A DNA stretch of 26,137 nt, taken from assembly GCA_000934665.2 (NCBI GenBank), contig KZ538284.1, positions 62,001-88,137 of the forward strand, given 5' to 3'. The position numbers and the translations under genes are program-made. This DNA comes from Catajapyx aquilonaris (Eukaryota). The notes under the pieces were generated by a model that saw only the letters and a list, made by a program, of their open reading frames with translations, was not told the DNA's origin and searched no databases. This document shows, piece after piece, positions 430-19,411 of this stretch (its first letter is position 1; every line of letters starts with the position of its first letter).

Positions 430-545
430 TAGGTAATTTTTCTGTAACAATTTGTCTGTCGTAATGTGCACAATGACACTTATTTTCATCGAAACTGCGT
501 TTGTTTTCTGAAATAAGCTCTAACAAGTAATCTTCCTTCGTACAG

Positions 546-3500
546 GCCAGCATTTCGCAACCCTGGTTCAGAAGTGCGAGGATGAGGACATGGTCAATCG
601 TGCCCTTTTGCACTGCTTCCCGGCCTGGGCCAAGTTATTTCCTGCGTTAGTGGATGCGACGCTTGGGAAGATTGTCAACAAAGCTTTAGAAAAAGATGCG
701 GCTCATGTCCTGTGCGCACTGGCCGAGTACCTCTTTCCAGCCGCCAAACCGTCTCAGGTGACACGCCAGCTTTTGGAGTCTGAATCCTTCTGGAAGCTAG
801 TGCAGGAAGGGTGCTGCAGCCAAGATTCGTGTCAGAGGAAGAGAGCACAGTTCCTTCTGAAGCGAGCAGTGGACAGCTGCAAATCCGGAAAGATTCGTGT
901 CACGTGCACGGCTTTCCGGTGGGACCCATCAGCTGCAGCTATTGAAGAGTGGACAAATATACTGGGTATTCTACAGGTAATCACCGCAATTAAAGTACTG
1001 ACTGCCGTAGTGTAATTATTAAGGAAATTGTCAGTTACGGTTGACTCAATCCTATACAAATTACTCTGTGTAATTGGTAGGATCAATTAAAAATTCCTCA
1101 GCACTACAGGAGTATCATTACGTAGCAATTACAGTAATTAAGCATAATGAGACTCTCGTGTGAATATGTCCAATAATTTTGCTTAATTTCGCAGGTTTTG
1201 GAGGAAAAGCAAGTGCACGTGATCAAGCCTGTACTGGGCAAATTAAATGCCGTGCTGGAGGCAGCCACGTCTGAACGACTGGACCTATCCTGGTACTTTC
1301 TACTACTGGGACGTACTTTCATTCACGAGAGTGGATTCATAGTCCGCTGGGGTGTGGTTCAGTTTTTGTCTGGATCGTGGTGTAAATGTGACGCAGTTGA
1401 AAGCTTCATCATGGGTCCGCTGTTGCAAACACTGAGCCAGCCAATGCTGTACAGTGACGATCAGGTCATTGACGCCTTGCTATCCTTTTTCGAGAGGATA
1501 TGGGACGGAAAGCAAGAATGGGCGGCGCAATTTTTGCCTCAGTTTCTGGATGCCGTGAGCGGAACACCTCGTGACCCACTTGCCCTGTTTTATATCGTCA
1601 AAGCATTGAACCGTGTCCCTTCTGTCCAGTGCAGTTCTGGAATTTTGAGGGCATTGAAAGAGACATTGTCGACATCGGTTCAGACTCGAAGCGGACTTCT
1701 GCGACTGGCCCTTCATCGTATTCTGGTGTTGGAGCTGCCTGTCCGGTTCTTGGATATGTCCAGCGTGGATCTGGATGAAATGGCCTCGCTACTCGGATGC
1801 TGCTCCTCCAGTCCCAGAGCCAACGTCAAAGCATGGAACAACATGTCTGGCTGGTTGAAGAATGCTGTCACATCAGATGCCGCTGCGGAATTTGTCTCTC
1901 TTCATTTCAATGGGTATTGTATTATCATAATATTGTGTTACGTATGACTGTTGCTGAATCTACTTCACAGAAATTCCAATCGAGTGGATGTCCATTCAGC
2001 TGTCCACATGTTCCTGCTTCTCTCCGATGCACAGTTGATTGATATGAACTCTTTCGTGTCACCCCTTCTGGACAACTTGGACGTATCTCCAGACCGGCTT
2101 TACGGCTGCATTGATATGGCATGTAAATCTCTGAAATTTCTAATTTGCCTGATGGAAGAAGCGCAGCACATGGACAGTTCTGTCCAAAACGCAATCAATT
2201 CCTTAATCGCTAAGAGAACAGACAGCCTCGTGCAGATGGCGCATCGAATGTGGTCTCCTGGAGTAACCAATTTGGACGACATGGACAATCTGGAAGTGGT
2301 GTTCACTTTTCTGGAGTCTGTCAGACCACTTCTGCCGATGGAGGCTGAACAAAGCATCTCGCGTGTGGCGCTAGAAAAAGCAAGCAACGTAAACTCGCAG
2401 ACTCCGATGGAGTACTACGTGGGAATTAAAGCTATCGGCTGGCTCGTAGCACACCCTCACGGAATTATGGTTTCAGAAATAATCCTAAAGCAGTCCTTGA
2501 AGCCAAAATGGGGGAAATTAAGTTCTCGAATTACATGTAGCTTGTGGAACAGCTGGAGCAATCACTTGAGATATGCTGGCGGCGCCAGTTTTTCCAAGGG
2601 AAAGTTGAAGTCCCTTCTGGACGATGCGCTGGACTCGCTTCTTACTGGCAGCCACGAGAGTCTCCCTCACATAATGGAATGCCTTCAGTTCGTGCTTCCA
2701 AGTCTTGCTCTCGGAAGTGGAAACATGTGGAGCACTTGCGAAGCGGCACTGGACTCATGCTGGAAAGCCTGTCTGCAGCTGAGGAAAAACCGTGCCTTCT
2801 GGACCACCGCCAGCAGCTTTGTCCGCATGGCTTTCCATCCGAAGCTGTTGTCCGAGCCGCATTTTCAGGACATTGCAACGAAGGTATAATTTTTTGCTTC
2901 GTGTGAATTTGCGTTAACTATTTTCCTGCTATTCCAGTACGGCCTGCTGATCTTGAGCCACGGAGAGAACATCCGGGGACTGGCTAACCTTCTCCTGGAC
3001 CATCTAACCACATCAATCCAGGACGGGCTGCTGGACATATCCGGCATATCCCCAGACGTCCTATTGGAAGCCGTTGTGTTTGGTCCGCTTCTGCGCAAAG
3101 ACCATCGTCTTCTGGACAGAACTTGCGAGAGGATTGCGTCAGAAGGAGAAGACTTCAGCGACACAGTCCCGGGAAGTCATCAAGCCAACTCCATGGTGCG
3201 AGTGGCGGCCTCGGAAATACTCTTGCAAATGGATGGTCCTGCAGCGCAGGGCATGTGCATCTTGATTCTCTCCAGAATGAAGCAGGAGAGAGAAAGGAGA
3301 CGGCGGTACTTTGGCGACTCGACCACGCATCGAGTTCTGCACCGTTGCATGCAGGCACTTCTCATCCTCCAGCCGTCCCTCACTGCGGACGCGTCCTGTC
3401 AGCTGATGGAAGCCGTGTCGCAACAACTGACGGAGGAGAACTCGCAGCCTAGCGTGCGGTACATGCAAGAGTGGCTACTAGTGCGTGTAATGGTCCAACA

Positions 3501-4834
3501 TGAGAAATTGAGGGAGAGGCTGTGGTGTTGCTTCGAGAGGTCCACCGAAGAGAAGGTGGGAAGCCTGGTGTCATTTGTGTCCGTGGCTGTTCATCTTGCT
3601 CGATGCTTAGACGATAACAAGTTCCTGGAAAAGTGCATACAAAACATTCTGCCGTGGTGCATGGCTCAAAACTTCAATGTCCGAGTTTATTCGCAGGTTA
3701 GTTGGAAGTTCCGTCTCGAATAGACTGAGAAATTAACATGTTTTTTCCATTCCAGGTGGCTCTCGGCAAGCTGTGGGAAGTTGCTAAAGGCACGACTCGT
3801 ATCCTGGAGAAGTATGATGCGGTGGTCGTCTGCCTCCAGCGACATGAGTCCGTGCAGGGCAATGCAGCTCGGAATCTTCACAAGCTCCAGGAAGACTTCT
3901 ACTTTTCAACGTTCCACCCGATGCATCATTTCTCGGCGCAAACCATCTTCTACGAACTTCCTCGGCTGGCCCGAATATCCTGCGACGAATGGATTCTGCC
4001 TGAACTGTTTTCGGACATGCCCAGACTTCCGAAACTCAACCCAACCCACGATCTTGAAGGGTGTGAGTCGGCCCAATGGGTGGTGAAGGCCGCTGGCGAG
4101 ACCGAGTTGGACGAGTGCGCAGACGCTGACTTCCAGGTGAAGATCTCGCCATGCAAAGGCATGGAGGAGCTTGTTGGGAGCGCCCAGCGTGGAAGGCCAC
4201 CTCCCAGCTCCTCCCAACTGGTGCTGGTGGCATCTCTGATTGAGCGCATGCCCAACTTGGGTGGGCTGTGCCGCACATGCGAGGCATTCGGAGTGAGCAA
4301 GCTGGTGGTGGGAAGCCTTAGGTGCGTCCAAGACCAGCAGTTCCGCAACCTGAGTGTGTCTGCCGAGAGGTGGGTGTCTCTGGAGGAAGTGCCGGTTCAC
4401 TCCCTACCAGACTTCATGAAGAGCATGAAGCAGAAGGGGTATCTCCTGGTGGGTGCCGAGCAGACGGCAAGGAGCACGGAGCTGCACCAGTTCAAGTTTC
4501 CTGCCAAGACGCTGCTTCTACTTGGGTAAATACATTTTCATAATGACATCGTGTATCGGAAAGTTACAGTCAAGTCTACATGGGCCAGTTGCGTTCAAGA
4601 GTAGTTCGCTCAACTTTGTTCACGTCTGGCCCCGCAGGTTATTACACCGTCAGTAAACGTTTGTTTTCTCTAATCCACAGAAATGAAAAGGAAGGAATTC
4701 CAGTTGAGATACTGGGGCTTCTGGATAAGTGCGTCAACATTCCCCAGCATGGATTCATCCGCTCTCTGAACGTCCATGTCGCTGGAGCTCTGTTTGTGTG
4801 GGAACACACTCGGCAGAACCTGTCTTCTAAATAA
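546..4834 (+). CDS. TARBP1: TARBP1/Trm3-like SpoU (SPOUT) tRNA Gm18 2'-O-methyltransferase, 5' part probably outside the window
   Basis: Phase-consistent GT-AG exons 546-976, 1195-1913, 1971-2883, 2938-3696, 3756-4525, 4681-4834. Long helical N-terminal region, then C-terminal SpoU motifs [58 protein letters not shown]. Confidence 0.93.
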
Positions 4835-5192
4835 TCGCTGGCTATTTCGTAAAAATGTACATAATGGAGTATCTTTTGGAATACAATTTTATATAAACAT
4901 GTAGCAGCATTTCTACTGGCGTGTCACCAGTGGTTAAGGTTATGAGGATCAAGACAGCTTTATGCTATTTGCACGGCAATATTTATTATTAAATTGCAAA
5001 ATACGTGGTACGTTATTTACAACTGAATTATCAGCTTCCAGTCACTGCCGATGTCTCGCGCATCTCTTTTCATACTTGAGGGCCTTCCGTCCATTCGATG
5101 ATGATGACGTTGAATCTGCATCAAGAAAAGTGACAATGTAACACGAGCCTACCCAATAAGTGATTGCTCTAAAACGTTGCAAATGAATCGGC

Positions 5193-5275
5193 GCTGCTCA
5201 GTAAAATGCGGTAACAAAACAACTGTACGTTATCACAGTATTCATAGGTGTCCCAAGTTGGTTCATCACAGCAGC
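5193..5275 (-). ncRNA. C/D box snoRNA, SNORD58-like (type A)
   Basis: GCTGCT-GTGATGA (box C)...CTTGGGACACCT-ATGA (D')...GTGATAA (C')...CTGA (D)-GCAGC with a terminal stem. Guide is antisense to conserved 28S AGGUGUCC(C/U)AAG. Box D is 82 nt from the acceptor. Confidence 0.88.
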
Positions 5276-5502
5276 TCATGCATTCAATGGAGGCGAGAAA
5301 CGAGCAGGACACAATGGTAATACCTGAAATGAGTTTTCTCCGTGGTCCCCTTCAGGTTGCTGCAGCAGATATCCTTCAAAAACTTGCACATCGCCCAGGG
5401 GCAATACTTCAGTTCGTAACACGGATGGCACAAACCTGGAAGTAAGATTGCCGAATGTATAAAACTGACTGGTATAACAGCCGACTTTTGCCGAGCTATA
5501 CA

Positions 5503-5590
5503 GAGCTCCTCAGTACAATCGGTAACAAAACAACTGTGTTTTAATCACATTATTCATTGGGTGTCCCAAGTTGGTTCATCACAGCAGCTC
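5503..5590 (-). ncRNA. C/D box snoRNA, SNORD58-like (type A, shifted guide)
   Basis: Box C GTGATGA 5582-5576; guide CTTGGGACACCCA-ATGA; box D CTGA 5513-5510; GAGCT/AGCTC stem; 74 nt from the acceptor. Confidence 0.85.
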
Positions 5591-5787
5591 ATGCATTCAA
5601 TCAACGAGGATGAGAAATTAGCACGAAACAATGTTAATACCTGAAATGAGTTCCCTGTGATGTTGGCGTAGCCGATATCCTTCAAAAACTTGCTGTCCAC
5701 CACTCCTTGGACTCTGCAAAAAATGACCATTTATAAAATCGCAGTTCAAAATGGCCTATTTTTATCATATTTAGACAAGGGAAGGAA

Positions 5788-5876
5788 TGTGCTCAGGACC
5801 ACGTAGGTCAATGTGATCTGTTTCCGTTTGAGATCAGGCGTCAGAGGTGTCCCAAGAAAATACTCGTCACTGCACA
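5788..5876 (-). ncRNA. C/D box snoRNA, SNORD58-like (type B)
   Basis: TGTGC stem, variant box C GTGACGA, guide TTCTTGGGACACCT-CTGA (D'), internal hairpin, box D CTGA 5796-5793; 79 nt from the acceptor. Paralog of 9964-10048. Confidence 0.8.
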
Positions 5877-6205
5877 ACTTCATGCACAATTAATGATCAT
5901 GCCAATTGAATCAAATCTTCATGCGAGGTCCACACTTCGTCAATGGAAATCAAATCCTTCAACATGTTACTAGTCAATTTTTGCTGAACCGCTTGAAGAT
6001 TTGAGTCTTACTAGTTTTAATGAAAATGTGTGGTAAAACAATTATGCAATTTCCAGCTTACCATAATCAGGAGAAGCCAGGGACGATCTTTTCCAGGCCA
6101 TGGACATTTCAGTTCGTAACATGGATGGCATAACCTGGAAGTAAGATTGCCGAGTGAATAAAACTGACTTGTACAACGACCGACTTTAGCAAACGAAACT
6201 GTACA

Positions 6206-6292
6206 GAGCTCCTCAGTAAATGCGGTAACAAAACAACTGTGTTTAATCACATTAATCATTGGGTGTCCCAAGTTGGTTCATCATAGCAGCTC
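6206..6292 (-). ncRNA. C/D box snoRNA, SNORD58-like (type A, shifted guide)
   Basis: Box C ATGATGA 6284-6278; guide CTTGGGACACCCA-ATGA; box D 6216-6213; GAGCT stem; 78 nt from the acceptor. Confidence 0.85.
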
Positions 6293-6543
6293 ATTTGTGA
6301 GTAACAATCACACAATGTCACAAACTCGAAGCATCTAAGGTTTATTTTTTAAAAAAAGGCACCGAAGGTAAAACAAATTCATCATATCCTTACCTTCATT
6401 AGGAGTCATCAATATCCAGGGATTATCTTTTTCAAGCCTGTACGGGTACTCGTTAAGATGGATGGCACAGACCTGGAATTAAAGTTGCAATGTCAGCAAA
6501 ACTGGCTTGTACAACGGCCGACTTTAGCAAACGGAGCTGTACA

Positions 6544-6630
6544 GAGCTCCTCAGTAATTGCGGTAACAAAACAACTGTGTTTAATCACATTAATCATTGG
6601 GTGTCCCAAGTTGGTTCATCATAGCAGCTC
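6544..6630 (-). ncRNA. C/D box snoRNA, SNORD58-like (type A, shifted guide)
   Basis: Box C ATGATGA 6622-6616; guide CTTGGGACACCCA-ATGA; box D 6554-6551; GAGCT stem; 78 nt from the acceptor. Confidence 0.85.
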
Positions 6631-6807
6631 ATTCGTATGAAAGGGCGAAACAATGTGTTTCAACTAATAAATCAACAAGTACCTGAAAGTGAGGTCCTTC
6701 CACAAGACGATCGTCCAGAGAATTAACCTTCCTGCGAAATGGATTTAAAGTACAAATTATTACACAGCCGCTGGCTTGCACGTTTCGTTACTATGCAGGT
6801 GACACAA

Positions 6808-6894
6808 TGTGCTCAGTATCACATGTGCCCATGTGATGTGATTGTCTCTGATCAGGATTCAGGTTGTCTCAAGGTAAATAATCATCACGGCACA
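6808..6894 (-). ncRNA. C/D box snoRNA, diverged type B paralog
   Basis: TGTGC/GCACA stem, box C GTGATGA 6888-6882, guide CCTTGAGACAAC-CTGA (D'), hairpin ATCACATG/CATGTGAT, box D 6816-6813; 81 nt from the acceptor. Confidence 0.82.
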
Positions 6895-7335
6895 ACTTCC
6901 GTATACTGATTCATTGGCACGTTGCACCGAAAACCAAGCCAAATTGCTTACCTTCAACATTCCATGCGGTGGCAGGTCACAAGCCTCGTCGTCTGGTATC
7001 CACCAGATGGAGCTGAAATATTTCGCATTACAGTTACTTGGAAGAGTAATATCAATTACTTGCTGTACTTACCAAACTGGTACGATGCAGAGGAAATGTA
7101 TTTCAAGAAACACTGGTTCAATGATATCAACATGTTTTAATTAAATTAGCCCTACCAATCAGATGGAGTCAACCAAATTTGTGAGTAAAAGTACAGAAAA
7201 TTTGTTATTAAACTTTATGTACGAAATGAAACATTCAAGTGACACAGAAGCCAAGCTCTTTGCAACGTTATGCGATTAAATTGTTATGCAGTCATCAAGG
7301 TCCCAATCCTGAGGAACGACGCTGTTGAGATCTCT

Positions 7336-7353
7336 TCAACGCAAAGTGTTCAC
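7336..7353 (-). CDS. CCT4: Second (distal) copy of the CCT4 last coding exon, VNTLR-stop
   Basis: CTTTTCCTTCAG|GTG AAC ACT TTG CGT TGA: strong acceptor, same phase and same peptide as the 7597-7580 exon. Confidence 0.8.
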   Translation of the reverse strand: MNTLR

Positions 7354-7425
7354 CTGAAGGAAAAGATGTAAAATTACTCTCGATTGGAAAAGCAATCGTC
7401 AAGTGCCTTGCTACAATGGACATCA

Positions 7426-7499
7426 ATTTGCTCAGATATCCTAAGCCATAAAATATCACGAATTGTCAAATAAGTTCGTCAGAATTCATCACAGCAAAT
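7426..7499 (-). ncRNA. C/D box snoRNA, target not identified
   Basis: ATTTGC/GCAAAT terminal stem, box C GTGATGA 7492-7486, D'-like TTGA and C'-like GTGATAT, box D CTGA 7435-7432; 78 nt upstream of the 7354 acceptor. Confidence 0.85.
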
Positions 7500-7579
7500 A
7501 AAATGGTTCAACAAAATAATGAAGCAACAACGAAAGATACTCACCATATCACTGGTTATGAAATACTGGTGCGATTCCG

Positions 7580-10500
7580 TCAACGAAGTGTGTTCACCTG
7601 AAGAAAGAATAGCCAATCAAGATCTCGGCAACATGCACATTTTTGCTACTACGAACATCAAGCACTCACAATGTCATCAATCTTAAGGATGCTGCGAACG
7701 GTCTCAGTTGCCAATGTAACGGCGCTAGTTGACACTAGCAGCGGCTGCACCACATGTTCCTCCAGAATATTGGTAATGAAACCCTGAATCAAGAATACAT
7801 CTGTCAGTTGATTGTAGCATGTAATAAGGTCAGCTTCGGCCTGCGTTGGGACAGCGGCATAACTTGCTCCATAAAGAGCTAGTTACCTTGCGAATGTTGA
7901 TCCCGGCTGTAGCCTCCCCCCTGGAGTGCCGGTTTCTGAGCTCCGTCACAGTGGCAATGGGGTTAAGGCCAGCATTCTCTGCAAGTGTGCATGGGATGAC
8001 CTCCAGGGCCTGGGCAAAGGCCTTCCAGCAGTGGCCATCTAAGCCAGTCAGGGTCTGCGCTTTTTCAGCCAGACGGAGGGAAGTCTCGATCTCTGGTGCC
8101 CCGCCACCTGCTATTATGTAGCGCTTCTTCACCAGGCACCGGATGACGCACAGTGCATCATGAAACGACCTCTCTGCCTCCTCCAGGACCAGCTTGTTGC
8201 TACCCCTGAGCATTATGGTCACAGTGCGACCTGCATTCTGGATGCCTGTTACCTATCCAGCCCCAGAAAAATTTAAAAAACGAGCATGTTACACTTGATC
8301 TTAGAGCGTTGGGTGGGGACTATGCCTGTAGCACAAAGGAAGCTCAGCACATGCTTGGAGGTTGCCTTGGTTCTCTTCAGCTTGATTCAGACAAGTCTGG
8401 TGAAATATTCATCCCTGCTTCCTATTTCAAAAAAAATGAAATCGTCTACCCGATATGATTTATGCTTCCTGATAAGACTCGGAGTAACTGAAAAGTCGAT
8501 GTGAAATCTTCAGTGGCAGTAAAACCTGTCATTCTGCCAAACCTGCTCATAACGAACTCATGCTTATCCCAACATTACACATCCAGTCGACTTCATTTTG
8601 ATATGTGGGTACTACCTGCAAGACGAATATTCCTACTTTCCAATAATCCGGACCTTTGCAGCTAACTTCCCAAGCACACTAAAACCTGTTTGAACAAGTC
8701 ATTGCATAGAGCAAAACTTTTGTTTCATCGCAACAGAGGATTTTCAGCGCATTTTTGCCTTACGTAACAGAAACCATGTCTGCAAGTAATTATTTTTGCA
8801 GAATGGAGCAAGCCTCCCGCAGACTTTTGTGTATGCAAATACCCACTGCACGCATCATTGTAATGCACAGTAACAAGCATGATGCAATCCCAAAGGTTTG
8901 ACACTGTCCACATGGACTGTAAGCACATTTTCCCAACAATCAATTATCAGCAACAATGTACGTCACAATGAAAGGAAGCATAAATCCCCAGCAGCAGACA
9001 GTATTTGAAAGAGTGGCATGCGAAACCCATCAATTCACTTACCTTGACCATCTTCGAGGATCCCATGCTGACCTCCTCCACCAGCTCTGCATTGGACAGA
9101 TTCTCAGGAAGGAAGTGGTCGAGACTTGCAATGGGTCTGCATCCCAGAGTCTGAAATGACACGGCAATGCACATTTTAACTGCTTTCCTAATAGTTACGC
9201 TTCCTCTCTACTAACCTTGCACACAAACTCAATGTCTTCCCTCTCAATGTCCTTCACAACCAGAATCTTCATTTTGTGGAGGAAGTGAATGGCCAAGTCG
9301 GACAGTGCATCTCGAAGAATAGACTTCTGAACCAGCAGCACATTGCAGCCAGCCTTCTTGACCTGCTTCACCGCATTCAGAATGTATGCTCGCTCCTCAC
9401 GGAGGATGCGGTCCATGGCAGCATAATCTGATACGATCACATCGCTCTGCATCTGTTTGCAGCAGAAAAGAACCGGCGTGAATCAAACATCACTAGCAGC
9501 ACACTGGAGTAAATGGGCAAGAACTCACATCAGTCTTGGGTGGGGAAATGCAGAACTGAATGAGGCCGATCTTAGCCTTCTCAATCTTCTTGGGTCCTTC
9601 CGACCCAGCACTCTTATGGCTGAACAAGAGGCCGTCAATGAGCTGGGCATCCTCAAGGGTGCCGCCCAACGACTTCATAACCTTCACATCCCTCAAATCG
9701 ACGTTGGTCTCCTGCACAGCTGAAGCACCCTCACCAGTGCCTCCAGAAGCACCACAAAGGCGGAGGACTGCATCCACTGCCAGCGGAGCCAGCTGTGACG
9801 ACTGCTGAGACACAACCTGTAGCAAGAATAGTCAACAAACTTCGTTACTGACAGTACTTCAAGCATGTCAAAACCTAGCTGTGCGTGATTTTTATATTGC
9901 AAAATTTTCCCAGCAAGCGCAAGACATGAATATTTTTCATCAAATTATTTCTGGTCTCCTGCATGCTCAGGGCCAGGTTGGTCAACCTGGCCTGTTTCCG
10001 TTTGAGATCAGGGTTCAGAGGTGTCCCAAGAAAATATTCATCATCGCACACAGGTATTCATTAAAATGACCGTTACTAATTTCATTGCAATTATATTGTG
10101 CGCGTTACATCCCCCCCCCAGCGGACCACTCCCTACCTTTGAGTTGAGGGAGGTGCTGGCACTCCTCAGGAGGCTGTCTCGATCCGAGAGCTCCACAGGG
10201 AGAGCCATCTCCTGCAAGATCTTTGTGGCTTCAATAGACGCCTTTCCATACGCTTCAGAGATGCTCGTTGGGTGTATCCCACGCTGGAGAAGCCTCTCTG
10301 AGGCTTCAAGGAGACTGCCGGCTAAGACCACGACGCTGGTGGTTCCATCCCCAGCCTCCGTGTCTTGTGCCTTGGAGAGTTCCACCAGCATCTTGGCTGC
10401 TGGATGCATCACATTCATCTGCTTCAGGATGGTGGCTCCGTCGTTTGTGATCGTCACTTCCCCATTGGCAGCCTGGATCTGGAATTATTGTTATAGGTCT

Positions 10501-13425
10501 TCTTAATCAGAAGGGCCTCAATAGTCATTCTCAACTAAAGTAAATGCTGACGACTGGATAGTATGTGCTCAGATTAATAGCTTCGGTTTTGACATCATAT
10601 TGTCAGAAGATCCCACGATAGTTCATCATTGCACGTTTCTTTTCCTCACCCTCCAGTGCTACGAATTAGTTGTAGCTGATAGCAATAAATTCGCAATAAT
10701 TCATATTGGAAGTTGTTCCGCAAAATATTATATGAAAACATGAAAGGCAGTTTTTAAATATCTGTCCCCTGAATAGTGAAAATCATGGCTCAAAAGAATG
10801 TGTTTTTTTTTTCCGCATTTCAAATGGTCACACCAGGCACTAAAAAAGCTTCCAAATTTTAATATTCAGACTGATTATGGCCAATTACTTCAAATAAAAA
10901 TTATTTCAAAACACTGCAGAATCATTAGTGGAAGGGATCCTTTAAGGTATTCCTGTCACTTCTTGAAAGCAACAACTTGACTTTTCCACCAGTCTATTAT
11001 TAAAGAAAGGGTTTTTAGGTTCTACACACCCCCAAAAAGGGTAGGAATTTAGGCCCTAAAAACAGTCAAACCAGGCTCTTACTCGGCAGTAAAAATCAAG
11101 CAGGTCCAAATTAATTTTCATTACTATGCACTCTTACTCCTGGCCATTGAATTTTGCAGCACAGTAATCAACCAGCAGTTATTCCACATTTTCATTGGTT
11201 AGACGGCAACGCCTGTCTAACAATGCATCTGAACACATTGAAAATGACATTTTGACGTCACACCCAGTGACTGGATCACACTTGGAAAATGAAATTTCTT
11301 CTACTACCAGTTTGTCCTTATTGCCTACATACTTTTCACAGTTCGCAGGTTGATGCCTTGAACGGAAAACCCGCAAAACCTCTCGAAATTCTTCCAGAAT
11401 GGCATGAAAACGGTGGATATAGGTGAAAATAGGTGCTAAAGGCAACGGATTTCTTAGAGTGAACTGCTGGGCCCATGGCCCCGCCCCCAAACAAACTTCT
11501 CTCCTCCCTCCTCCCCAACTTCTCCCCCCCACCACTTTGGCACCATGACATGTATCCCTGCGCCGGAGCGGGAAACCTTATTCCGATGGTGCTTTTATGC
11601 GCGCCGAAAAGAAGTGCCTGGATTTCTCCTAATAAGTCGTTTAATACATGATTGATTTTAATTTATTGCTCGATGATGGGATTGTTGGGATTGTTGGGAT
11701 GGAGTAGCATAGGTCGCGGGCAAGACATGGCGACAAAACAAGAGCGAGAAGGGCATGAAACATGTTATAAAAAGTTTATTAGCGTAATTATTCCAACCTA
11801 CTGCAAAAGTATGCGGCTGCCGCGTGACCGAAGTCAGAAGCGTTTGTCTGGGTCCCACTTGGACCGGCATGTCAGGTACAGCATGACAGACACAGGCGGC
11901 AGACGAGACATGGTGGAACCACGGGTGGAACAAGAGATTCGAACGATGCTTCGAAATTACGCTGACACGGATCCCGATGCTCTTTTGTCTCTCGCCTTGA
12001 AAGTAGTCCCCATGTGGCCATATCGAACGACTTTTGCTGATTTTAATTTTTCTATTACGCTATTCTAAATAATGCTTTAGTGTTCATAAATTATGTCAGA
12101 ACCAAATAATTGATATCGGTCGAATTCCTTTTTAAAATACACCGTCAATTACATTGATGTATTTTCACCTGGCAATGGTCATACAAGCGACCCCATTGGT
12201 TCGCCCGGGGGGGCGTGTCTGTTCACTCTAAGAAATCCGTTGCCTTTAATAGGCAATTCAGGTTCCAATACCCGAAATAAGCTATTTTATGGTTTACCAA
12301 ACCACGATTTTTGAGGTCCTTGTGTTATGAAAGAGATCGATATTTTGGCTCCGATGTTCCTCCTACATAATAAACAAGATTGGCAAATCACATGGCGTGA
12401 TTTTGTGTGGATAGAGTGAACCCAGTACACCAGGGCGGGTCCCAGGAAGTTGACCACGACATGTTAGGGTCACGATTAATCCGAATATATTAACAGTTTG
12501 CCTCAATCTTTTATGGTTTAGGTCCTGATACCTGTCCACAGACGGACAACCGTTCTATGACTTTTTCCCAGAACCGAAGCAGTTTGGTGGAGTGGATAAG
12601 GTGTTCGACTGCTAATCGGGAAGTCCTGGGTTCGAGTCCCAGGGCCGGCAATCCTAACCGTGGTTATCTGTGGTTTCCCAGTCCCCCCCAGGAGAATTCC
12701 AGGATTGCTTCCGTAATTAATAGGCCACAGCCGCTTCCTTCCGTCCCTATCATATCCCAAAAAGCAAAGAGTTCCAGTCAAAACAAAATTGGGATGAACT
12801 CCCCTGCCTAAAGAGCCGCCGGCTGATAACAGGGTACGCATTATTATTATTAGTACTTTTTCCCAGATGATGAATAAGTCTAAAAAGTAGGTAAAAACCT
12901 CCATTCTCTACACTGTAAACCTGTAAAAGAGCATCACTGGTGAGTCTCGCATGGAACATCAATTTTTTAATGCTCTTCTTGTGATGCTTTTTAGCAACAA
13001 AAACGTATCACAAGGAACTATAAAAATTGATGTTCCATGAGAGACTCACCAGTGATGCTCTTTTAATGTTATCAGGTTTACAGTGTACCTAATTATATTT
13101 TAATTCCTTCCATCACCCTCCACCCAATAGGAGTAAACCAAAGGTGTCACCTTACCATCTTATCCATGCCCCTGGGACCCAGGCTGGTTCGAATCGCATC
13201 GGCCACAGCTGGAAATTTAAAACAAAAAATAAATGTAATGCATTGTTAGAAAGAATTCCCTTTGGAACAAAGGGGGGGCCATGTAAGGCCATGTTCGTCC
13301 CACGCCTTTTTCATCCTTCCCCTGACCACACCTTTTGCGGCGACGATGTTGCTGCTCCTGATCTCCGCCGCCTTGTTCTTGTCCTTGAAGGCCCCTGGGC
13401 CCTTCATGTTCGTGTTGGGGGTCAT
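7580..13425 (-). CDS. CCT4: T-complex protein 1 subunit delta (CCT4), about 539 aa
   Basis: Exons 13425-13332, 13208-13156, 10478-10137, 9816-9529, 9452-9216, 9150-9043, 8252-7887, 7783-7670, 7597-7580 (or 7353-7336) join in frame. Motifs: [78 protein letters not shown]. Confidence 0.97.
8338..8422 (-). ncRNA. C/D box snoRNA in CCT4 intron 6, predicted 18S guide
   Basis: GGAAGC/GCTTCC stem, variant box C GGGATGA, guide CACCAGACTTGT-CTGA (D') antisense to conserved 18S GCAAGUCUGGUG, box D 8347-8344; 91 nt from the acceptor. Confidence 0.85.
9964..10048 (-). ncRNA. C/D box snoRNA, SNORD58-like (type B), CCT4 intron 3
   Basis: Box C ATGATGA 10044-10038, guide TTCTTGGGACACCT-CTGA, hairpin GGCCAGGTT/AACCTGGCC, box D 9970-9967. 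Confidence 0.88.
10565..10634 (-). ncRNA. C/D box snoRNA in CCT4 intron 2
   Basis: GTGC-A-ATGATGA (C)...CTGA (D')...ATGATGT (C')...GAAGCTATTAAT-CTGA (D)-GCAC. All four boxes plus a stem; 90 nt from the acceptor. Confidence 0.88.
12573..12854 (+). mobile_element. tRNA-derived SINE in CCT4 intron 2
   Basis: A box TGGTGGAGTGG, anticodon-like arm CGACTGCTAATCG (Ser-GCT-like), B box GGTTCGAGTCC. Body GTGGTTTCCC...TAGGCCACAGCCGCTTCCTTCC resembles insect Talua/Lm1-type SINE cores (from memory). (TTA)n tail and 13-bp TSD ACTTTTTCCCAGA at 12560-12572 and 12855-12867. Confidence 0.88.
12911..13085. mobile_element. Foldback MITE with CACTG termini
   Basis: TA|CACTGTAAACCTG...CAGGTTTACAGTG|TA. Near-perfect internal inverted arms AAAAGAGCATCACTGGTGAGTCTC-CATGGAACATCAATTTTT. 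Confidence 0.85.
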
Positions 13426-13489
13426 CTAGGGTCGGGTGGACTAGGGACACCGGGAGGATGCGATCCGATTTCGTTCGAGAGGGTCCAAC

Positions 13490-14336
13490 GAGAAGGAGGG
13501 GAAGAGGAAAAGAAGAACGTTCCAGAAGAACACAAGGGGAAAGGCAAAGGCTGCGTCTCCGTGTCGCAGACCGGCTGTGACGTCATCACGGCGCTACGGA
13601 GACGCAGCCAGTTCGGATGTAGCTGCAAGAGGGCGACTAGCAGTTATATTAGTGTGTGTAAACTTTGGTGTGAACCAACTATCGAGCTAAACATACGGTT
13701 AACCACATTGACAGCACAAATGTTAACACCTAATTGCCTGTTCGTTACTGCAACAACTGTAGTTAAATACGCATTTAATGCGCATCACACGGCCAATCGC
13801 ATCCTACTAATATAACGGTTGACTGATCATATTAGCTACATATTGTATCCCTGGTGGTGACTATCTCCATATTTTAATGCATTAACTAATTATCCAATTT
13901 ATTCTGCGCTAATTAATTAGTAGAGGCAATTTCGGTGCAATGCATTTTGATTAACTGTGCTGAATACAATCCTGCACTGAAAACAAACCGGAAGTACAAC
14001 CGGTAGCCAATCAGAACTCTTCCCGCTACATGTACTTCCGATCTAAGCCCAATCCTAGCCACTTAAACTTGCAAATTTAATTATTTTACATTCAACTCCC
14101 ATCGGTATTACTCCATATATTTTAACAACTAACAGACACCCCTGTAAACCTCGCTTGAATCTACAAACTCCACATTTAACTGGAAAAGGGGAGACCCAAC
14201 CCGTGCCTACTCCTATGCTGAAAAGGGACTCAAACTGGGCGCGGGCACGTGAAGGAAAAAAAAACGGGAAGAAAGGGAAGAGCCGGAGAGTCCTGAAGGA
14301 AGAAGAGGTTCGCACTTCGCAGACAGGAGACAGGAC
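13490..14336. promoter_or_regulatory. Divergent promoter region shared by CCT4 and DTL
   Basis: Head-to-head ATGs about 910 bp apart. Pyrimidine-rich TOP/TCT-like CCT4 leader (13550-13490, minus strand), CRE TGACGTCA 13578-13585, ETS CCGGAAGT 13988-13995, CCAAT 14007-14011, E2F-like TTCCCGC 14020-14026. Confidence 0.6.
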
Positions 14337-16358
14337 ATGGCTGTACTAAACAGGCTGCTCCGCAGGGAGAGACGCGGTGGTGAGTAGTCAGATCTACGCT
14401 GGACACATGCCATTTTAGTAGCAGCATTAGTTAGTAGTAGCACTAGTGGTAGTACCACTACTAGTCAGTAGTCACACTACTAGTTAGTAGTAGCACTAGT
14501 CAGTAGTCACACTACTAGTTAGTAGTAGCACTACTAGTTAGTAGTAGCACTACTAGTTAGTAGTAGCACTACTAGTTAGTAGTAGCACTACTAGTTAGTA
14601 GTAGCACTACTAGATAGTGGTACCACTAGTTAGTGGTAGTACCACTACTAGATAGTGGTACCACTAGTTAGTAGTACCCGGTAGTACCACTACTAGTTAG
14701 TAGTCGCACTAGTTAGTAGTACCACTACTAATTAGTAGTAGCACTAGTGGTAGTACCACTAGTAAGTCTAATGATGATGATGATCTACAGACTTGCTGAG
14801 CTTCAGGGACATGGAGCACCTCCTGTATTCACTGCGATGCAGGCGTGAAAATGTGTACTATGGGTTCAGTGGGGAGGAAGAAGGGTTGGAGGACATACCG
14901 CCTATGTATGCGTGTAAATTCAATCCGACTCCGGGCCGGCAGCATTGGCTGGCTATGGCGGATGAGGACGGGTGTTTTGGCCTTTTGGATACCACCAGGG
15001 AAGCGGCGGAGTCAGGGTGCATGCGGGGTGGCTTCCATGCACACAACAACTGCATTTTTGACCTCAGCTGGCTTCCGGGGGAGCAGAAAATTGTGACGGT
15101 GTCTGGAGATCAGAGTGCTGTTGTTTGGGACGTACAGACTTTTCCGTATCGTGCTGTCAACTGGTTCTATGGGCACACCAGGAGCGTGAAGTGTGTTGCA
15201 ACTGCTCCGTGTGGAAATGGTTGGTAGTTACTCACTGAAGACGTAGCAGGCATGTTACTGATTCGCAACATTTCATTAACAGGTGTTCTGGCGACTGGTG
15301 GTCGGGATGCAGCTGTGTTTGTATGGGACTCGCGCAAGAAATCCCCTACACCGGAGAATCACATCAAGGCCCATACCAGCCAAGACCAAAAGATGGGCCA
15401 TGGCAGTGTGACGGATATTGCTTTCTGGGATGACTTTCGCCTCATTAGCAGTGGTGCCACTGATGGTGAGAGTCGTGTTTGGGATCTTCGCAAGAGCTAC
15501 TCTGTATATACCCGTGCTCCTATGCCCCTGACTCGCTTGACCCCTCATGGCAAGCCTATAGCCATCACCTCTCTTGCCTTGGATCAATCCCAATCCCTGC
15601 TCTACACATCATGCATGGACAATCATATTTACAGGTACAACCTGGCATCACCGAGCATCCATCCTGATGTGGCCTATCATGGGCACAGGGTAGAAAGCTT
15701 TTATATCAAGATCTGTCTTAGCCCATGTAGTGGGTACCTTTTGAGTGGGTCCAGCAATGGGAAGCCCTACGTGTGGTCTGTAAATAGTCGAGACCCTCTT
15801 GTGGAATTGGATAGACATTTTCAGGAGGTGTCGTGCGTGGCGTGGTGCCCTGCTCCAGGACTACCTCGTATGATCACCTGTGGAGATGACTTGAGGACCC
15901 GAAAGTGGGAAGTGCTGCCTGAAGATTATGATAATGTTGAGAGAGCCCAAGTTCCAGAAAAACTTGACTTTTGTCACTGCGACAGGTGGTTCAAGCCTGA
16001 TGAGCCAGTCAAGAGAGTAGCACTGGTTAGTCGAGTGGTGCCACAGGACACTGTGTCACCAATCCGTTCCATGGTAGCAGACCTGCCCAATCTAGTCTTG
16101 GACAGCCCTCCCGACAGAGGACTCCGACACAGGGCAATGCACAAGCAGGGACCAATGGATTGGCTTACGAGGATGGGGAGGCAGAGGAAGCTCAAGTTTG
16201 CTTCTACGCTTAAGCCTCAGGAAGTCTCACCACGTCAGTCATCACCATCACCAGGGCGAACCCCCAAGTCCGGAAGGAAGCGCAGGGTCAACAACACTCC
16301 AAAACGTGGAAAGATAAGCCTGCACCAGTTCTTTACTACTCCGGACAAAGGTAAATGA
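14337..16358 (+). CDS. DTL: Denticleless / Cdt2 WD40 substrate receptor of CRL4, about 515 aa
   Basis: Exons 14337-14379, 14791-15219, 15283-16358 join in frame. Motifs LAMADEDG, AHNNCIFDLSW, SGDQSAVVWD, GHTRSVK, SGATDGESRVWDLRK, SFYIKICLSP; basic, SP/TP-rich tail with PIP-like ISLHQFF. Confidence 0.93.
14417..14764. repeat. TAGT/ACTA-based self-complementary minisatellite in DTL intron 1
   Basis: About five tandem 19-nt units TAGTTAGTAGTAGCACTAC (about 14515-14610) plus variants; many ACTAGT and GTGGTACCAC palindromes. Confidence 0.9.
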
Positions 16359-17382: not shown

Positions 17383-17542
17383 TTTTGAAACGTCATTTTG
17401 TATCGATCGAACAGGTGTGATTTGATGTCCATTGCGTTCGATCCGCTGGCCTTCCACACTGTCTGACAGGATTGTTTGATCACTTAACAGTTCATGTAGT
17501 ACTAGAGGTTTGGTAGTCTAGAGCTGATAGCTGGAGCCAGCC

Positions 17543-19411
17543 ATGGCGTCGGTGATGGACTGGAGCGATGCATTCCGTTTGGATCCTCTGTACGTGGCTC
17601 TGTACTGCTTCAGAAGGAGGAAGTACGACGAGTGTGCAGAAATATGCACTGGTCTGCTGCAGAAGAATCCGTACGATCAGGTGATGCACCCAACTAATTG
17701 ATTGATTGATAACTCATCTTAATGGTCGCATTCGATAATTAAAGGCTGTCTGGACTCTGAAGATGCAAACGTTGACTGCGGCGGTGTATGTGGATGATGT
17801 GGAGGCAGATGAGGAGGGAATAGCGGAGGCCTTCATGGGCGATGAGACCACCATGGCCACAGCAGCACGTCCTGGCACGTCACTCCGAGTGCCCTCTGCG
17901 GAGTCGTCGTCAGTCCAGTCACAACAACAGCTGGGCACAACTCAGGCTTACCGCCCCATGTCAAGTAGTGGACGCCCCTTGTCTGGTGTGGTGCGGCCGT
18001 CTTCCGCTGCCAACTCTTCCTCCATCCAACAAGCCTTGTCTGTTCCCCGATCAGCATACACAGCACGTCCAGCCTCCTCTGCCTCAGGACGGTTTGTTCG
18101 TCTTGGCACTGCCTCCATGCTGGCTCAACCAGACGGTCCCCTAGTCAATGTGTCTCGCATGGACCTCAAGTCATATGCACAGAAACTGGGCATAGCTAAT
18201 GTCCTATTTCGGTACTACAGCCACCTTTATTCAATTCTAATCTAGTTCAACAACTGAGTCTTTGTAAACACAGGTACCTGCTCTACCATGAAGGTGATGT
18301 CCAACATGCTCTGGAACTGGCTGCAGAAGCAACCCAGGCAGCTAAATTTAAGGATTGGTGGTGGAAGGTGCAGCTGGCCAAGTGCTACTACCGACTGGGT
18401 CTGCTGCGAGAGGCTGAGCAGCAGCTCAAATCAGCCATTCGCCAGCAGCCAACAATAGAGGCGGCACTGCACCTGGCCAGCGTGTACCTGCGTCTTGACC
18501 GCCCGCTGGCTGCACTTGAGACATACCGCACGGCCAGTGAAACCTTTCCAGGTGAAGCCAGTCTGCTAACTGGAGAAGCCAGGGTGCAGGAGGCATTAGG
18601 GGAAGTCAACATCTCTGTTCGCCTCTACCGAGAAGTGTTGCAACAGGATGCGATGCATGTTGAGGCAGTTGCTTGCACAGCAGCACACTTCTTCTACGCT
18701 GACCAGCCCGAGGTGGCACTCAGGTTTGTTTATTTGCATCAGTATTTGGCAGCAAAACAGATTATACCTTGCTGTAATTTATAATGTTCATTAAAATTTT
18801 ATTATACATTGCATGGTTGATCCTGAGAATTTGGAATTACAGTTACATTGTTGTTCAGTTGCAAATGACTATGCTTTCTCAGATTTTATCGTCGACTCTT
18901 ACACATGGGAGTGCACACAGCACGTGTGTTCTGTAATACTGGACTCTGCTGCTTCTACGCTCAGCAGTATGACCTGGCGATACGCTGCTTGGAACGGGCA
19001 TTGGCATTGGCCCTGGAGGAAGAGGCTGCTGATGGCCTGGCTGATGTGTGGTACGGCATAGGCCACGTGGCTGTGGCCCTGGGAGACTCACCGTTGGCCT
19101 CACAAGCCTTCTTACTGGCCCTCTCGGTGCAGCATGACCATGCGGAGGCTTTGAATGACCTGGGTGTGCTGGAGGCTCGAAGGGGAAGGCTGGACTCGGC
19201 TAGGGCTCTGTTCCAAGCCAGTGCTGGGTCCCAGCCAGGACCAAAACCCCACTTATACCAGCCTCACTTCAACCTGTCACTGCTTGCAGACAAGACTGGA
19301 GAGTTGTCTGCTGCATACTTGTCCATCCAAAACTCATTGGTGGCTTTCCCACAGCACTCACATTCAGTCCAGCTGCATTCTCGACTCAAGAAACACTTTT
19401 CTTCGCTGTAA
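17543..19411 (+). CDS. TTC8: BBSome TPR subunit BBS8/TTC8, about 527 aa
   Basis: Exons 17543-17680, 17745-18211, 18274-18723, 18883-19411 join in frame. Motifs NPYDQAVW, ARPGTSL, RPMSSSGRPLSGVVRP, SGRFVRLGTASML, DWWWKVQLAKCYYRLGL, QPEVALRFYRRLL, GLCCFYAQQYD. Confidence 0.96.

Follow-up and report, generated by a model that had tools for sequence, protein, structure and literature searches.

In Catajapyx aquilonaris, the chaperonin subunit gene CCT4 is followed on the same strand by six consecutive introns that each hold a single box C/D snoRNA, and an assembled contig from a public sequencing run, in which all six introns have been spliced out, joins their exons to those of CCT4. This array is probably not a separate gene, but an extended, multi-intron 3′ UTR of CCT4 itself. 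The window analysed is a stretch of 26,137 nt (assembly GCA_000934665.2, contig KZ538284.1, positions 62,001-88,137, forward strand). All positions below are those of the window, and since the feature lies on the minus strand, ranges are generally given in descending order.

Six consecutive introns downstream of CCT4 each hold one C/D snoRNA

The array occupies positions 6951-5116 of the minus strand and is made up of six GT-AG introns with one box C/D snoRNA apiece. The first (6951-6732, 220 nt; exon joint 6731/6952) holds snoRNA A, which extends from a C box at 6888 to a D box at 6813 and leaves 81 nt between box D and the 3′ splice site, a distance counted here and throughout from the end of box D. 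The second (6682-6473, 210 nt; joint 6472/6683) carries the SNORD58-like snoRNA B (6622-6551; 78 nt), the third (6393-6135, 259 nt; joint 6134/6394) snoRNA C (6284-6213; 78 nt) and the fourth (6061-5714, 348 nt; joint 5713/6062) snoRNA D (5870-5793; 79 nt). The SNORD58-like snoRNAs E (5582-5510; 74 nt) and F (5269-5198; 82 nt) lie in the fifth (5640-5436, 205 nt; joint 5435/5641) and sixth (5323-5116, 208 nt; joint 5115/5324) introns. Between the introns lie five internal exons, all short and non-coding (6731-6683, 6472-6394, 6134-6062, 5713-5641 and 5435-5324, together spanning 6731-5324), and a last exon, 5115-4971, follows. The contig stops at 4971, 11 nt past an AATAAA at 4987-4982, which marks the polyadenylation site.

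Members of the C/D class carry two boxes 60-100 nt apart, C (RUGAUGA) towards the 5′ end and D (CUGA) towards the 3′ end, together with a terminal stem of at least 4 bp and an antisense element of at least 10 nt to rRNA or snRNA that ends beside box D or D′; they accumulate at about 70-100 nt, bound by fibrillarin, Nop56, Nop58 and Snu13. Each array intron has one C box, RTGATGA in form (GTGACGA in snoRNA D), and one terminal CTGA, with a C-to-D span of 72-78 nt across the six snoRNAs and a terminal stem of 5 bp in every copy. A simple C/D detector, applied to the entire 26-kb window in both orientations, gave eight hits, all of them minus-strand and within the CCT4 unit, against a background mean of 0.175 and a maximum of 2 hits per window in 200 first-order Markov surrogates. 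Stable snoRNAs are predicted to accumulate from the array introns.

Much of this anatomy had been described in a first-pass annotation of the same DNA. Its six consecutive introns with one C/D snoRNA each were confirmed, with regard to both boundaries and boxes, and are the same six that are spliced in the contig, while its list of box D spacings is ours in reverse order (81, 78, 78, 79, 74 and 82 nt). The terminal AATAAA that it had placed after the array is present, and its statement that no long open reading frame is to be seen agrees with our finding that the longest ATG-initiated frame of the spliced tail encodes 77 amino acids. The indels it had noted between homologous exons are likewise real: paralogous array exons differ by insertions or deletions of 1 and 2 nt, lengths not divisible by three. 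Given these frame-breaking indels and the shortness of the longest frame, we rejected the possibility that the array exons are coding.

Five of the six array snoRNAs share a guide element

Among paralogues, the snoRNA bodies are 87-99% identical, as compared with 35-70% for the intron flanks and 36-72% for the exons. The SNORD58-like paralogues within the array are B, C, E and F, with B and C sharing 86 of 87 positions, while D is paralogous to a candidate that resides in the CCT4 coding intron 10136-9817. An antisense element, CTTGGGACACC, situated upstream of a D′-like box, is common to B, C, E, F, D and the coding-intron paralogue of D, and equals the guide of both SNORD58 and the snoMe28S-Gm3113 consensus in the Rfam alignments. 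As these RNAs carry the SNORD58/Me28S-Gm3113 guide, their predicted target is most likely one conserved segment of 28S rRNA, which they would direct for 2′-O-methylation. In snoRNA A the antisense element has diverged (TTACCTTGAGACAAC, as against TTTCTTGGGACACCT in D and its intronic paralogue), and the sequence adjoining box D varies among B, C, E and F. We also observed that these four copies share an invariant 17-nt element, CAGTTGTTTTGTTACCG, whose distance to box D varies, and that a one-base difference in the spacer sets B, C and E apart from D and F.

A search against Rfam, which the first-pass annotation had suggested, gave no match in the window at gathering thresholds, and yielded sub-threshold matches to SNORD58, SNORD29 and snoMe28S-Gm3113. 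For SNORD58 (RF00151), whose gathering threshold of 42 bits is reached by none of the copies, sub-threshold scores were 29.1 bits for F (E 0.0021), 17.0 for B (E 5), 16.8 for D (E 6) and 16.6 for E (E 6.7), with A and C absent from the sub-threshold matches; snoRNA F also matches snoMe28S-Gm3113 at 23.3 bits. Because these scores lie below the RF00151 gathering threshold, the copies are named SNORD58-like by their guide element only. A 22-nt pattern combining C box and guide had no matches in a metagenome scan.

Homology between the downstream flanks is confined to B, C and E (z 13-16), all other pairs having z values of 3.4 or less. The 74-82 nt spacing has thus been kept over five unrelated downstream flanks, which argues that it is constrained, rather than merely inherited along with the snoRNAs. 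A box D at this distance from the 3′ splice site is in the position that couples snoRNP assembly to splicing.

CCT4 is a multi-snoRNA host with a duplicated stop-codon micro-exon

The coding exons of CCT4 (CCT delta) extend from an ATG at 13425 to 7670 on the minus strand. Those that follow the ATG are 13208-13156 (exon 2), 10479-10137, 9816-9529, 9452-9216, 9150-9043, 8252-7887 and 7783-7670. TIGR02342, the CCT delta family, was the top family for all four exons tested (205, 178, 95 and 134 bits), scores to which the full-length cut-off is not applicable, since the exons were scored singly. The best identity for the CCT4 exons was 80% among the at least 120 matches listed, in which arthropods, molluscs, cnidarians and others are intermixed. 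The leader is pyrimidine-rich, as expected for the promoters of snoRNA hosts. In total the locus has ten C/D candidates, seven of which lie beyond the stop codon. The four outside the six-intron array comprise three within introns upstream of the tail (10629-10569, 10044-9967 and 8426-8331) and one between the two copies of a duplicated stop-codon micro-exon. No account of CCT4 as a snoRNA host was found among the titles and abstracts listed by the one literature search on this point.

The proximal copy of this terminal micro-exon (7597-7545; contig joints 7597/7670 and 7353/7545) translates as VNTLR followed by a stop, a TGA at 7582-7580 that lies 35 nt ahead of the micro-exon's 5′ splice site. 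It and the beginning of the following exon are duplicates (repeat D8, 78% over 41 nt), separated by the first 3′ UTR intron (7544-7354, 191 nt), which is removed in the contig. This intron contains a C/D candidate running from a C box at 7492 to a D box at 7432; its terminal stem is 6 bp long, and 78 nt separate its box D from the 3′ splice site. A SNORD29 match at 7427-7497 is sub-threshold (27.5 bits, E 0.015, versus a gathering score of 48). The exon that follows is a composite of 402 nt (7353-6952), which has the second VNTLR-stop copy at its start and a strong donor, AAG/GTAAGC, at its end.

The first-pass annotation had stated that no canonical AATAAA follows the distal CCT4 stop. In the interval between the stop and the array this hexamer is indeed absent, but an ATTAAA at 7141-7136 had been overlooked. 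Judged by its sequence, the ATTAAA, which has a CA about 20 nt downstream and then a GT-rich run, is a candidate for the proximal poly(A) signal that would yield a short CCT4 mRNA, although it could equally be a TATA-like element. Upstream of it lie the poly(A) variants CATAAA (7219-7214) and AATAAC (7209-7204).

A spliced contig joins CCT4 to the array

The RNA evidence consists of one assembled contig of 2718 nt, from one public run (X1) of unrecorded library type (0.37 of words). The contig has 13 GT-AG joints, with the six array introns removed at exactly the predicted borders, and contains CCT4 exons 10479-7670, both copies of the VNTLR-stop exon, the stretch 7353-6952 and the array exons; its loose 5′ end aligns to 13157-13186 within CCT4 exon 2. 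Exon 7353-6952 is unbroken (the piece 6951-7349 corresponds to record positions 531-929, with no other letters). Because the contig is without 13 GT-AG introns, we treated run X1 as cDNA-derived, and consider it unlikely that the contig is a processed retrocopy in DNA. Stretches without contig cover, such as those inside the array introns, were counted neither way. The contig depth of 106.8 is a single figure for the whole contig, by which short and long CCT4 forms are not rankable.

These data refine the earlier gene model in several respects. Where eight exons with good splice sites had been drawn, the six array introns proved exact, while a seventh of 60 nt (7072-7013), which has good GT..AG ends, is left unspliced inside exon 7353-6952; as 7353-6952 is one exon in the contig, there are seven exon pieces rather than eight. 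The idea that CCT4 transcripts run into the array and serve as its host receives support at the level of the contig, which joins the two but may be a chimera. As an alternative, a lncRNA had been envisaged with a first exon of its own at about 7097-7073, spliced from 7073 to 7012; neither this exon nor this splice is used in the contig.

The idea of a separate gene can be put more generally. The array might be an independent non-coding snoRNA host of the UHG, GAS5 or dUhg type, driven by its own promoter within 7353-6952, with the contig joining two RNAs by virtue of overlap or rare read-through. Contigs may merge overlapping or bridged transcripts and RNA starts or ends are not readable from them, so that an internal promoter may have gone unseen; indeed, an identical contig would result from a few read-through reads, or from an overlap of at least 31 nt between the 3′ end of CCT4 and a host RNA with its start in 7353-6952. 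Three motifs in this interval resemble promoter elements: around 7160 there is an ATTGG, 7145-7135 is AT-rich and TATA-like, and pyrimidines form a short run near 7095. The CATAAA/AATAAC pair at 7219-7204 lies ahead of them and could terminate CCT4. In addition, the anatomy of the array, with its one snoRNA per intron, its short, diverging exons and its lack of an open reading frame, is that of the classic non-coding hosts, and most described multi-snoRNA arrays of such form are separate genes. Nevertheless, we regard an independent host as rather unlikely, given that the contig crosses the whole interval unbroken and without the predicted 7073/7012 splice, that CCT4 already hosts multiple snoRNAs, among them a 3′ UTR-intron snoRNA and a paralogue of array snoRNA D, and that, as reported in PMC1821038, a Drosophila cluster first annotated as dUhg6 turned out to be the 3′ UTR of mfl. 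Finally, it is very improbable that the array is a recently duplicated and largely non-functional relic, spliced but with decaying copies that give no stable guide RNAs, because, even though the antisense element of copy A has diverged, B, C, E and F are unlike one another next to box D, and no copy attains an Rfam gathering score, five of six copies have kept their boxes, terminal stems and 5′ antisense element amid strongly diverged exons and intron flanks, and the spacing to the 3′ splice site has been held across unrelated flanks.

The array as a probable CCT4 3′ UTR

Since the contig is continuous from the CCT4 exons into the array, the array reads as a 968-nt, seven-intron 3′ UTR. If it is indeed the tail of CCT4, Pol II would start at the CCT4 promoter with its pyrimidine-rich leader, pass through the coding exons and continue for about 2.4 kb past the stop as far as the distal AATAAA. 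The transcript would then have seven post-stop introns, each with one C/D snoRNA: the six of the array and, before them, the one that separates the VNTLR-stop micro-exons. As 74-82 nt separate box D from the 3′ splice site, each splicing event would be expected to release one snoRNA, freed by debranching and trimming, and the spliced by-product would be a CCT4 mRNA with the 968-nt 3′ UTR. As six exon junctions lie more than 400 nt past the stop, this long form is predicted to be unstable via NMD. Cleavage at a proximal signal (the ATTAAA or the variants near 7210) would instead produce a short mRNA and none of the six array snoRNAs; here the single junction 35 nt after the stop should confer immunity to NMD by the 50-nt rule. 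A regulated choice between these two 3′ ends may exist, in which a putatively weak proximal poly(A) site, as the first-pass annotation had proposed, would allow chaperonin mRNA to be traded for guide RNAs. The snoRNAs in coding introns, including the paralogue of D, together with the 3′ UTR-intron snoRNA that came about via terminal-exon duplication, suggest that growth of the 3′ end by snoRNA-bearing introns had occurred earlier too.

A stronger version, which we put forward with considerable doubt, is that CCT4 is a dual-output gene in which exon 7353-6952 makes the decision: cleavage at the ATTAAA would yield a stable mRNA, while use of the exon's donor would yield six guides and an NMD-doomed mRNA, so that chaperonin supply would be traded against ribosome modification through competition of the strong splice donor with the poly(A) site. 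In the extreme form of this dual-output scheme, every CCT4 mRNA may carry the seven-intron tail and thus be constitutively coupled to NMD.

If the linkage is true, CCT4 would provide a second and larger example, after Drosophila mfl, of a protein-coding gene that has grown a snoRNA array as its 3′ UTR. The history of such a tail appears to be recorded in the locus, with duplication of the stop-codon micro-exon giving rise to the first 3′ UTR intron, followed by tandem duplication of exon-intron units. For annotation this serves as a warning that a 'non-coding snoRNA host gene' which immediately follows another gene in the same orientation may be the tail of that gene. The locus would also make a simple system in which to study the balance between mRNA and intron-encoded RNA, as set by poly(A) choice versus splicing and by NMD. 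As the general principles have already been published, its value is that of a clean natural example, with no new mechanism.

Comparison with known systems

Hosts such as UHG, GAS5 and dUhg have one snoRNA per intron, tandem paralogues, short and poorly conserved exons, and a spliced, polyadenylated by-product; they are stand-alone genes with their own promoter, typically of the 5′TOP type. The CCT4 array resembles them in that each intron has a single snoRNA and the exons are short, non-conserved and devoid of any long open reading frame, but differs in that the contig links these exons without a break to a complete CCT4 coding sequence. Thus, while the GAS5/UHG-like label of the first-pass annotation fits the anatomy, a closer precedent is the protein-coding gene mfl/Nop60B.

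In Drosophila melanogaster, mfl/Nop60B has an alternative 3′ UTR snoRNA cluster that was earlier taken for a non-coding host and named dUhg6 (Riccardo et al. 2007, PMC1821038). According to that report, mfl transcripts pass a first poly(A) site into extra 3′ UTR exons, with one small RNA in each 3′ UTR intron. The cluster comprises four isoforms of one C/D snoRNA and two related copies, the C/D RNAs being positioned some 70 nt ahead of the 3′ splice site, and the choice of 3′ end sets which small RNAs a pre-mRNA releases (PMC1821038). The same report describes how the question of host versus tail was resolved in favour of a tail, linkage having been established by RACE, RT-PCR and Northern blots. 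On these published features, mfl/Nop60B is a direct precedent for the CCT4 architecture. Like mfl, CCT4 has same-strand snoRNA introns after its stop (7582-7580), seven in number with one snoRNA each, at 74-82 nt, and a cDNA-type link between its coding exons and the 3′ exon cluster, which here is one contig from one run and possibly a chimera. In contrast to mfl, the host is a chaperonin subunit rather than a snoRNP protein, the snoRNAs are SNORD58-like rather than DmSnR60, there are seven 3′ UTR introns, the first of them made by duplication of the stop-codon micro-exon, and the proximal poly(A) site is represented by candidate hexamers only (ATTAAA, CATAAA and AATAAC).

Cis-duplicates of SNORD58 in vertebrates occupy introns of RPL17, where they arose by duplication within the gene, as described by Hoeppner et al. 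2009 (PMC2817437). In CCT4, too, several copies are distributed over different introns of one host, with a matching antisense element, CUUGGGACACCU as against CUUAGGACACCU in the Rfam consensus. However, this host is not a ribosomal protein gene, the copies lie after the stop, the best of them scores 29.1 bits against a gathering threshold of 42, and the 3′ half of the CCT4-array RNA is unrelated to the SNORD58 model.

It has been proposed, in two reports, that nonsense isoforms generated by alternative splicing, initiation or termination uncouple snoRNA output from the level of the spliced host RNA (2014, PMC4233243; Colombo et al. 2017, PMC5238794), and a 3′ UTR intron more than 50 nt past the stop is described there as the strongest predictor of NMD. 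The predicted NMD-prone form of CCT4 differs from the cases presented there in that it would come about through 3′ extension, rather than through exon skipping in the coding region.

An intronic C/D snoRNA array follows the CCT4 stop codon

On the minus strand, 3' of the CCT4 stop codon, the window sequence holds six consecutive GT-AG introns (6951-6732, 6682-6473, 6393-6135, 6061-5714, 5640-5436 and 5323-5116). As the first-pass annotation had proposed, there is a single box C/D unit in every intron, with boxes and stems found in all six. These candidate snoRNAs, lettered A to F by intron, combine a C box (RTGATGA, or GTGACGA in D) with a terminal CTGA, are closed by a stem of 5 bp, and run from C box start to D box end over 6888-6813, 6622-6551, 6284-6213, 5870-5793, 5582-5510 and 5269-5198. 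The 3' splice site lies 81, 78, 78, 79, 74 and 82 nt beyond the end of box D, the same numbers as annotated earlier, in reverse order. An AATAAA lies at 4987-4982 (-). A detector was run over all 26 kb of the window, on either strand; it demanded a C box followed 58-100 nt later by a D box, with a terminal stem of no fewer than 4 bp. It returned eight matches, every one of them on the minus strand in the interval 10629-5198; 200 first-order Markov surrogates gave a mean of 0.175 matches and a maximum of 2.

A spliced contig joins the array to CCT4

X1, a public sequencing run of unrecorded kind available as Logan contigs, was the one run listed as containing the sequence (0.37 of sampled words present), and none recorded as RNA was listed; the X1 contigs were aligned to positions 4700-10550. 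One contig of 2718 nt has 13 joints there, all GT..AG and on the minus strand, and because it lacks these 13 introns we took X1 to be cDNA-derived. It comprises CCT4 exons 10479-10137, 9816-9529, 9452-9216, 9150-9043, 8252-7887 and 7783-7670, followed by a micro-exon (7597-7545); the six array introns are absent exactly at their predicted borders, and the contig ends at 4971, 11 nt beyond the AATAAA. The six array splice junctions and final poly(A) signal of the first-pass annotation were recovered, and its first exon and 60-nt intron (7072-7013) are unused in the contig. The loose 5' end of the contig matches CCT4 exon 2 (13157-13186); should its remaining sequence follow exons 2 and 1 in line, its start would fall near 13554, at a pyrimidine-rich leader.

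The CCT4 stop codon (TGA, 7582-7580) lies within the micro-exon, 35 nt upstream of its donor, just inside the distance usually held to be safe from NMD. The micro-exon and the first part of the following exon are duplicates (repeat D8; 7322-7606, -). In the X1 contig this following exon is 402 nt long (7353-6952, -), opening as the last exon of CCT4 and closing with the donor AAG/GTAAGC. In translation, the C-terminus (...KIDDIVNTLR, then stop) is unchanged with or without the first micro-exon copy. Between the two VNTLR-stop copies, intron 7544-7354 carries a further C/D candidate (7492-7432, -), 78 nt from the 3' splice site, with a sub-threshold SNORD29 match (27.5 bits, E 0.015). From the contig joints and the stop position, the 3'UTR of the CCT4 message in X1 is 968 nt long and crosses seven exon junctions; its longest ATG ORF is 77 aa, in agreement with the earlier report of no long ORF. 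Inside the 402-nt exon, CATAAA and AATAAC lie upstream of an ATTAAA (7141-7136) that precedes CA and a GT-rich run; the exon's strong donor lies 165 nt downstream of this ATTAAA.

Taken together, we think it probable that the array extends the CCT4 transcription unit at its 3' end. The read-through proposed earlier is partly supported: the array is linked to CCT4 exons, at contig level only. De Bruijn assembly would merge into one contig two RNAs sharing a 31-nt overlap, or connected by a handful of read-through reads, and a contig spanning two genes is no proof of a single transcript. Such a fusion could also account for the contig if a separate non-coding host gene started inside 7353-6952, where a possible promoter is formed by ATTGG near 7160, an AT-rich TATA-like box (the same element as the ATTAAA) and a pyrimidine run near 7095; the contig is unbroken across 7353 to 6952, and we consider a separate gene possible but less likely.

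Conservation of snoRNA bodies and spacing

In a paralog alignment, the bodies of B, C, E and F are identical at 75-86 of 86-87 positions, while identity is 35-70% across their intron flanks and 36-72% across adjacent exons, where indels are numerous, as had been noted between homologous exons. This pattern indicates that selection targets the intronic RNAs rather than the exons, and a decaying, non-productive array seems highly improbable. The flanks downstream of B, C and E are homologous (z 13-16); those of the 7492-7432 candidate, A, D and F show no kinship to one another or to the B/C/E flank (z <= 3.4). All nonetheless measure 74-82 nt from D box to 3' splice site, and similar length in unrelated flanks indicates that the spacing is constrained, beyond plain copying.

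Guide identity

No Rfam family reached its gathering score in the window, and C/D families matched beneath it. In the E-value scan, copy F matched SNORD58 (29.1 bits, E 0.0021, gathering score 42) and Drosophila snoMe28S-Gm3113 (23.3 bits), B, D and E matched SNORD58 weakly (16.6-17.0 bits), and A and C had no listed SNORD58 match. The SNORD58 match rests on the antisense element CUUGGGACACCU, compared with CUUAGGACACCU in the family consensus. CTTGGGACACC is present in six of the ten candidates at the CCT4 locus (B, C, D, E, F and the copy at 10044), and the antisense element of A has diverged. The spacer from this element to the D'-like ATGA is one base longer in B, C and E than in F; as the 'fifth nucleotide' rule sets the methylation target position, their predicted target would lie one position from that of F. 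B, C, E and F also share an invariant 17-nt stretch, CAGTTGTTTTGTTACCG, in their 3' half (approximately 6559-6575, 6221-6237, 5519-5535 and 5207-5223, -), at a varying distance from box D, with 5-6 differing bases before that box. The stretch appears unlike a canonical methylation guide and could be an accessory pairing or structural element.

CCT4 as host gene and its surroundings

CCT delta (TIGR02342) was the top family for all four exons tested, and the best exon identity to a database protein was 80%, with arthropods, molluscs, cnidarians and others mixed among the matches listed, which points to an invertebrate-like metazoan. CCT4 hosts snoRNA candidates throughout, with three on the minus strand in coding introns: 10629-10569 (89 nt between box D and the 3' splice site), 10044-9967 (150 nt) and 8426-8331 (SNORD91-like, 30 bits, E 0.035, non-canonical C box). 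The second is a clear paralog of snoRNA D, with the same antisense stretch TATTTTCTTGGGACACCT, then CTGA; the third lies within the only intron piece under a separate low-depth contig (8311-8888).

Pyrimidines strongly dominate the 5' leader of CCT4 (13425-13560, -; CCTTTGCCTTTCCCCTT...), and a TGACGTCA element immediately precedes it; the leader is TOP-like, as expected of a snoRNA host gene. Intron 2 holds a nearly perfect long hairpin (12925-13069), most likely an inverted repeat resembling a MITE, that matched several plant microRNA precursor models far under threshold (for example MIR6425, 60.6 bits, gathering score 142). At 12585-12642 (+) there is a tRNA-like fragment. The strand opposite to CCT4 carries, upstream of it, a WD40-repeat gene (14784-16358, +) and a TPR-repeat gene (17500-19411, +), and beyond ~20.5 kb the window is repeat-rich with isolated N and an N run near 25.55-25.7 kb. 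At the other end, a plus-strand gene (524-4834) whose product ends with an RNA methyltransferase domain of the SpoU type (PF00588, E 8e-16) converges on the array poly(A) site. The stop codon of this gene is at 4834 and the array finishes at 4971, which leaves at most ~140 nt between their 3' ends; these may overlap.

A model for the CCT4 tail

As a 3' extension of CCT4, the tail would contain seven post-stop introns, each yielding one C/D snoRNA by snoRNP assembly coupled to splicing; the optimal place for such assembly is cited as ~70-80 nt ahead of the 3' splice site (in PMC1821038). The spliced by-product would carry six junctions more than 400 nt past the stop; in human cells NMD is described as being best predicted by a 3'UTR intron located over 50 nt past the stop codon (PMC5238794), and NMD targets as enriched in snoRNA host genes (PMC4233243). 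The long CCT4 form may likewise be an NMD target. Cleavage at the proximal hexamers would instead give a short mRNA with a single junction 35 nt past the stop and without the array snoRNAs. Nearby poly(A) sites are subject to U1-dependent inhibition, and the strong donor of the 402-nt exon could suppress the ATTAAA. Since proximal cleavage is possible but could be suppressed in this way, CCT4 may be subject to a regulated 3'-end choice, or else have a constitutive long form.

Comparison with known systems

The titles and abstracts listed contained nothing relevant on CCT4 as a snoRNA host gene. The SNORD58-like copies at CCT4 are cis-duplicated, like vertebrate SNORD58, reported as four cis-duplicated copies in different RPL17 introns (PMC2817437). 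The closest precedent for the tail is Drosophila mfl/Nop60B, as described in PMC1821038: four DmSnR60 C/D isoforms and two snm60 occupy introns of alternative 3'UTRs, one per intron, with the DmSnR60 genes ~70 nt away from the 3' splice site; which small RNAs the pre-mRNA can release depends on its choice of poly(A) site. That cluster was originally annotated as a non-coding host, dUhg6 (PMC1821038). With one snoRNA per 3'UTR intron and similar spacing, the layout of the CCT4 tail would, by analogy, belong to a kind already known from mfl/Nop60B.
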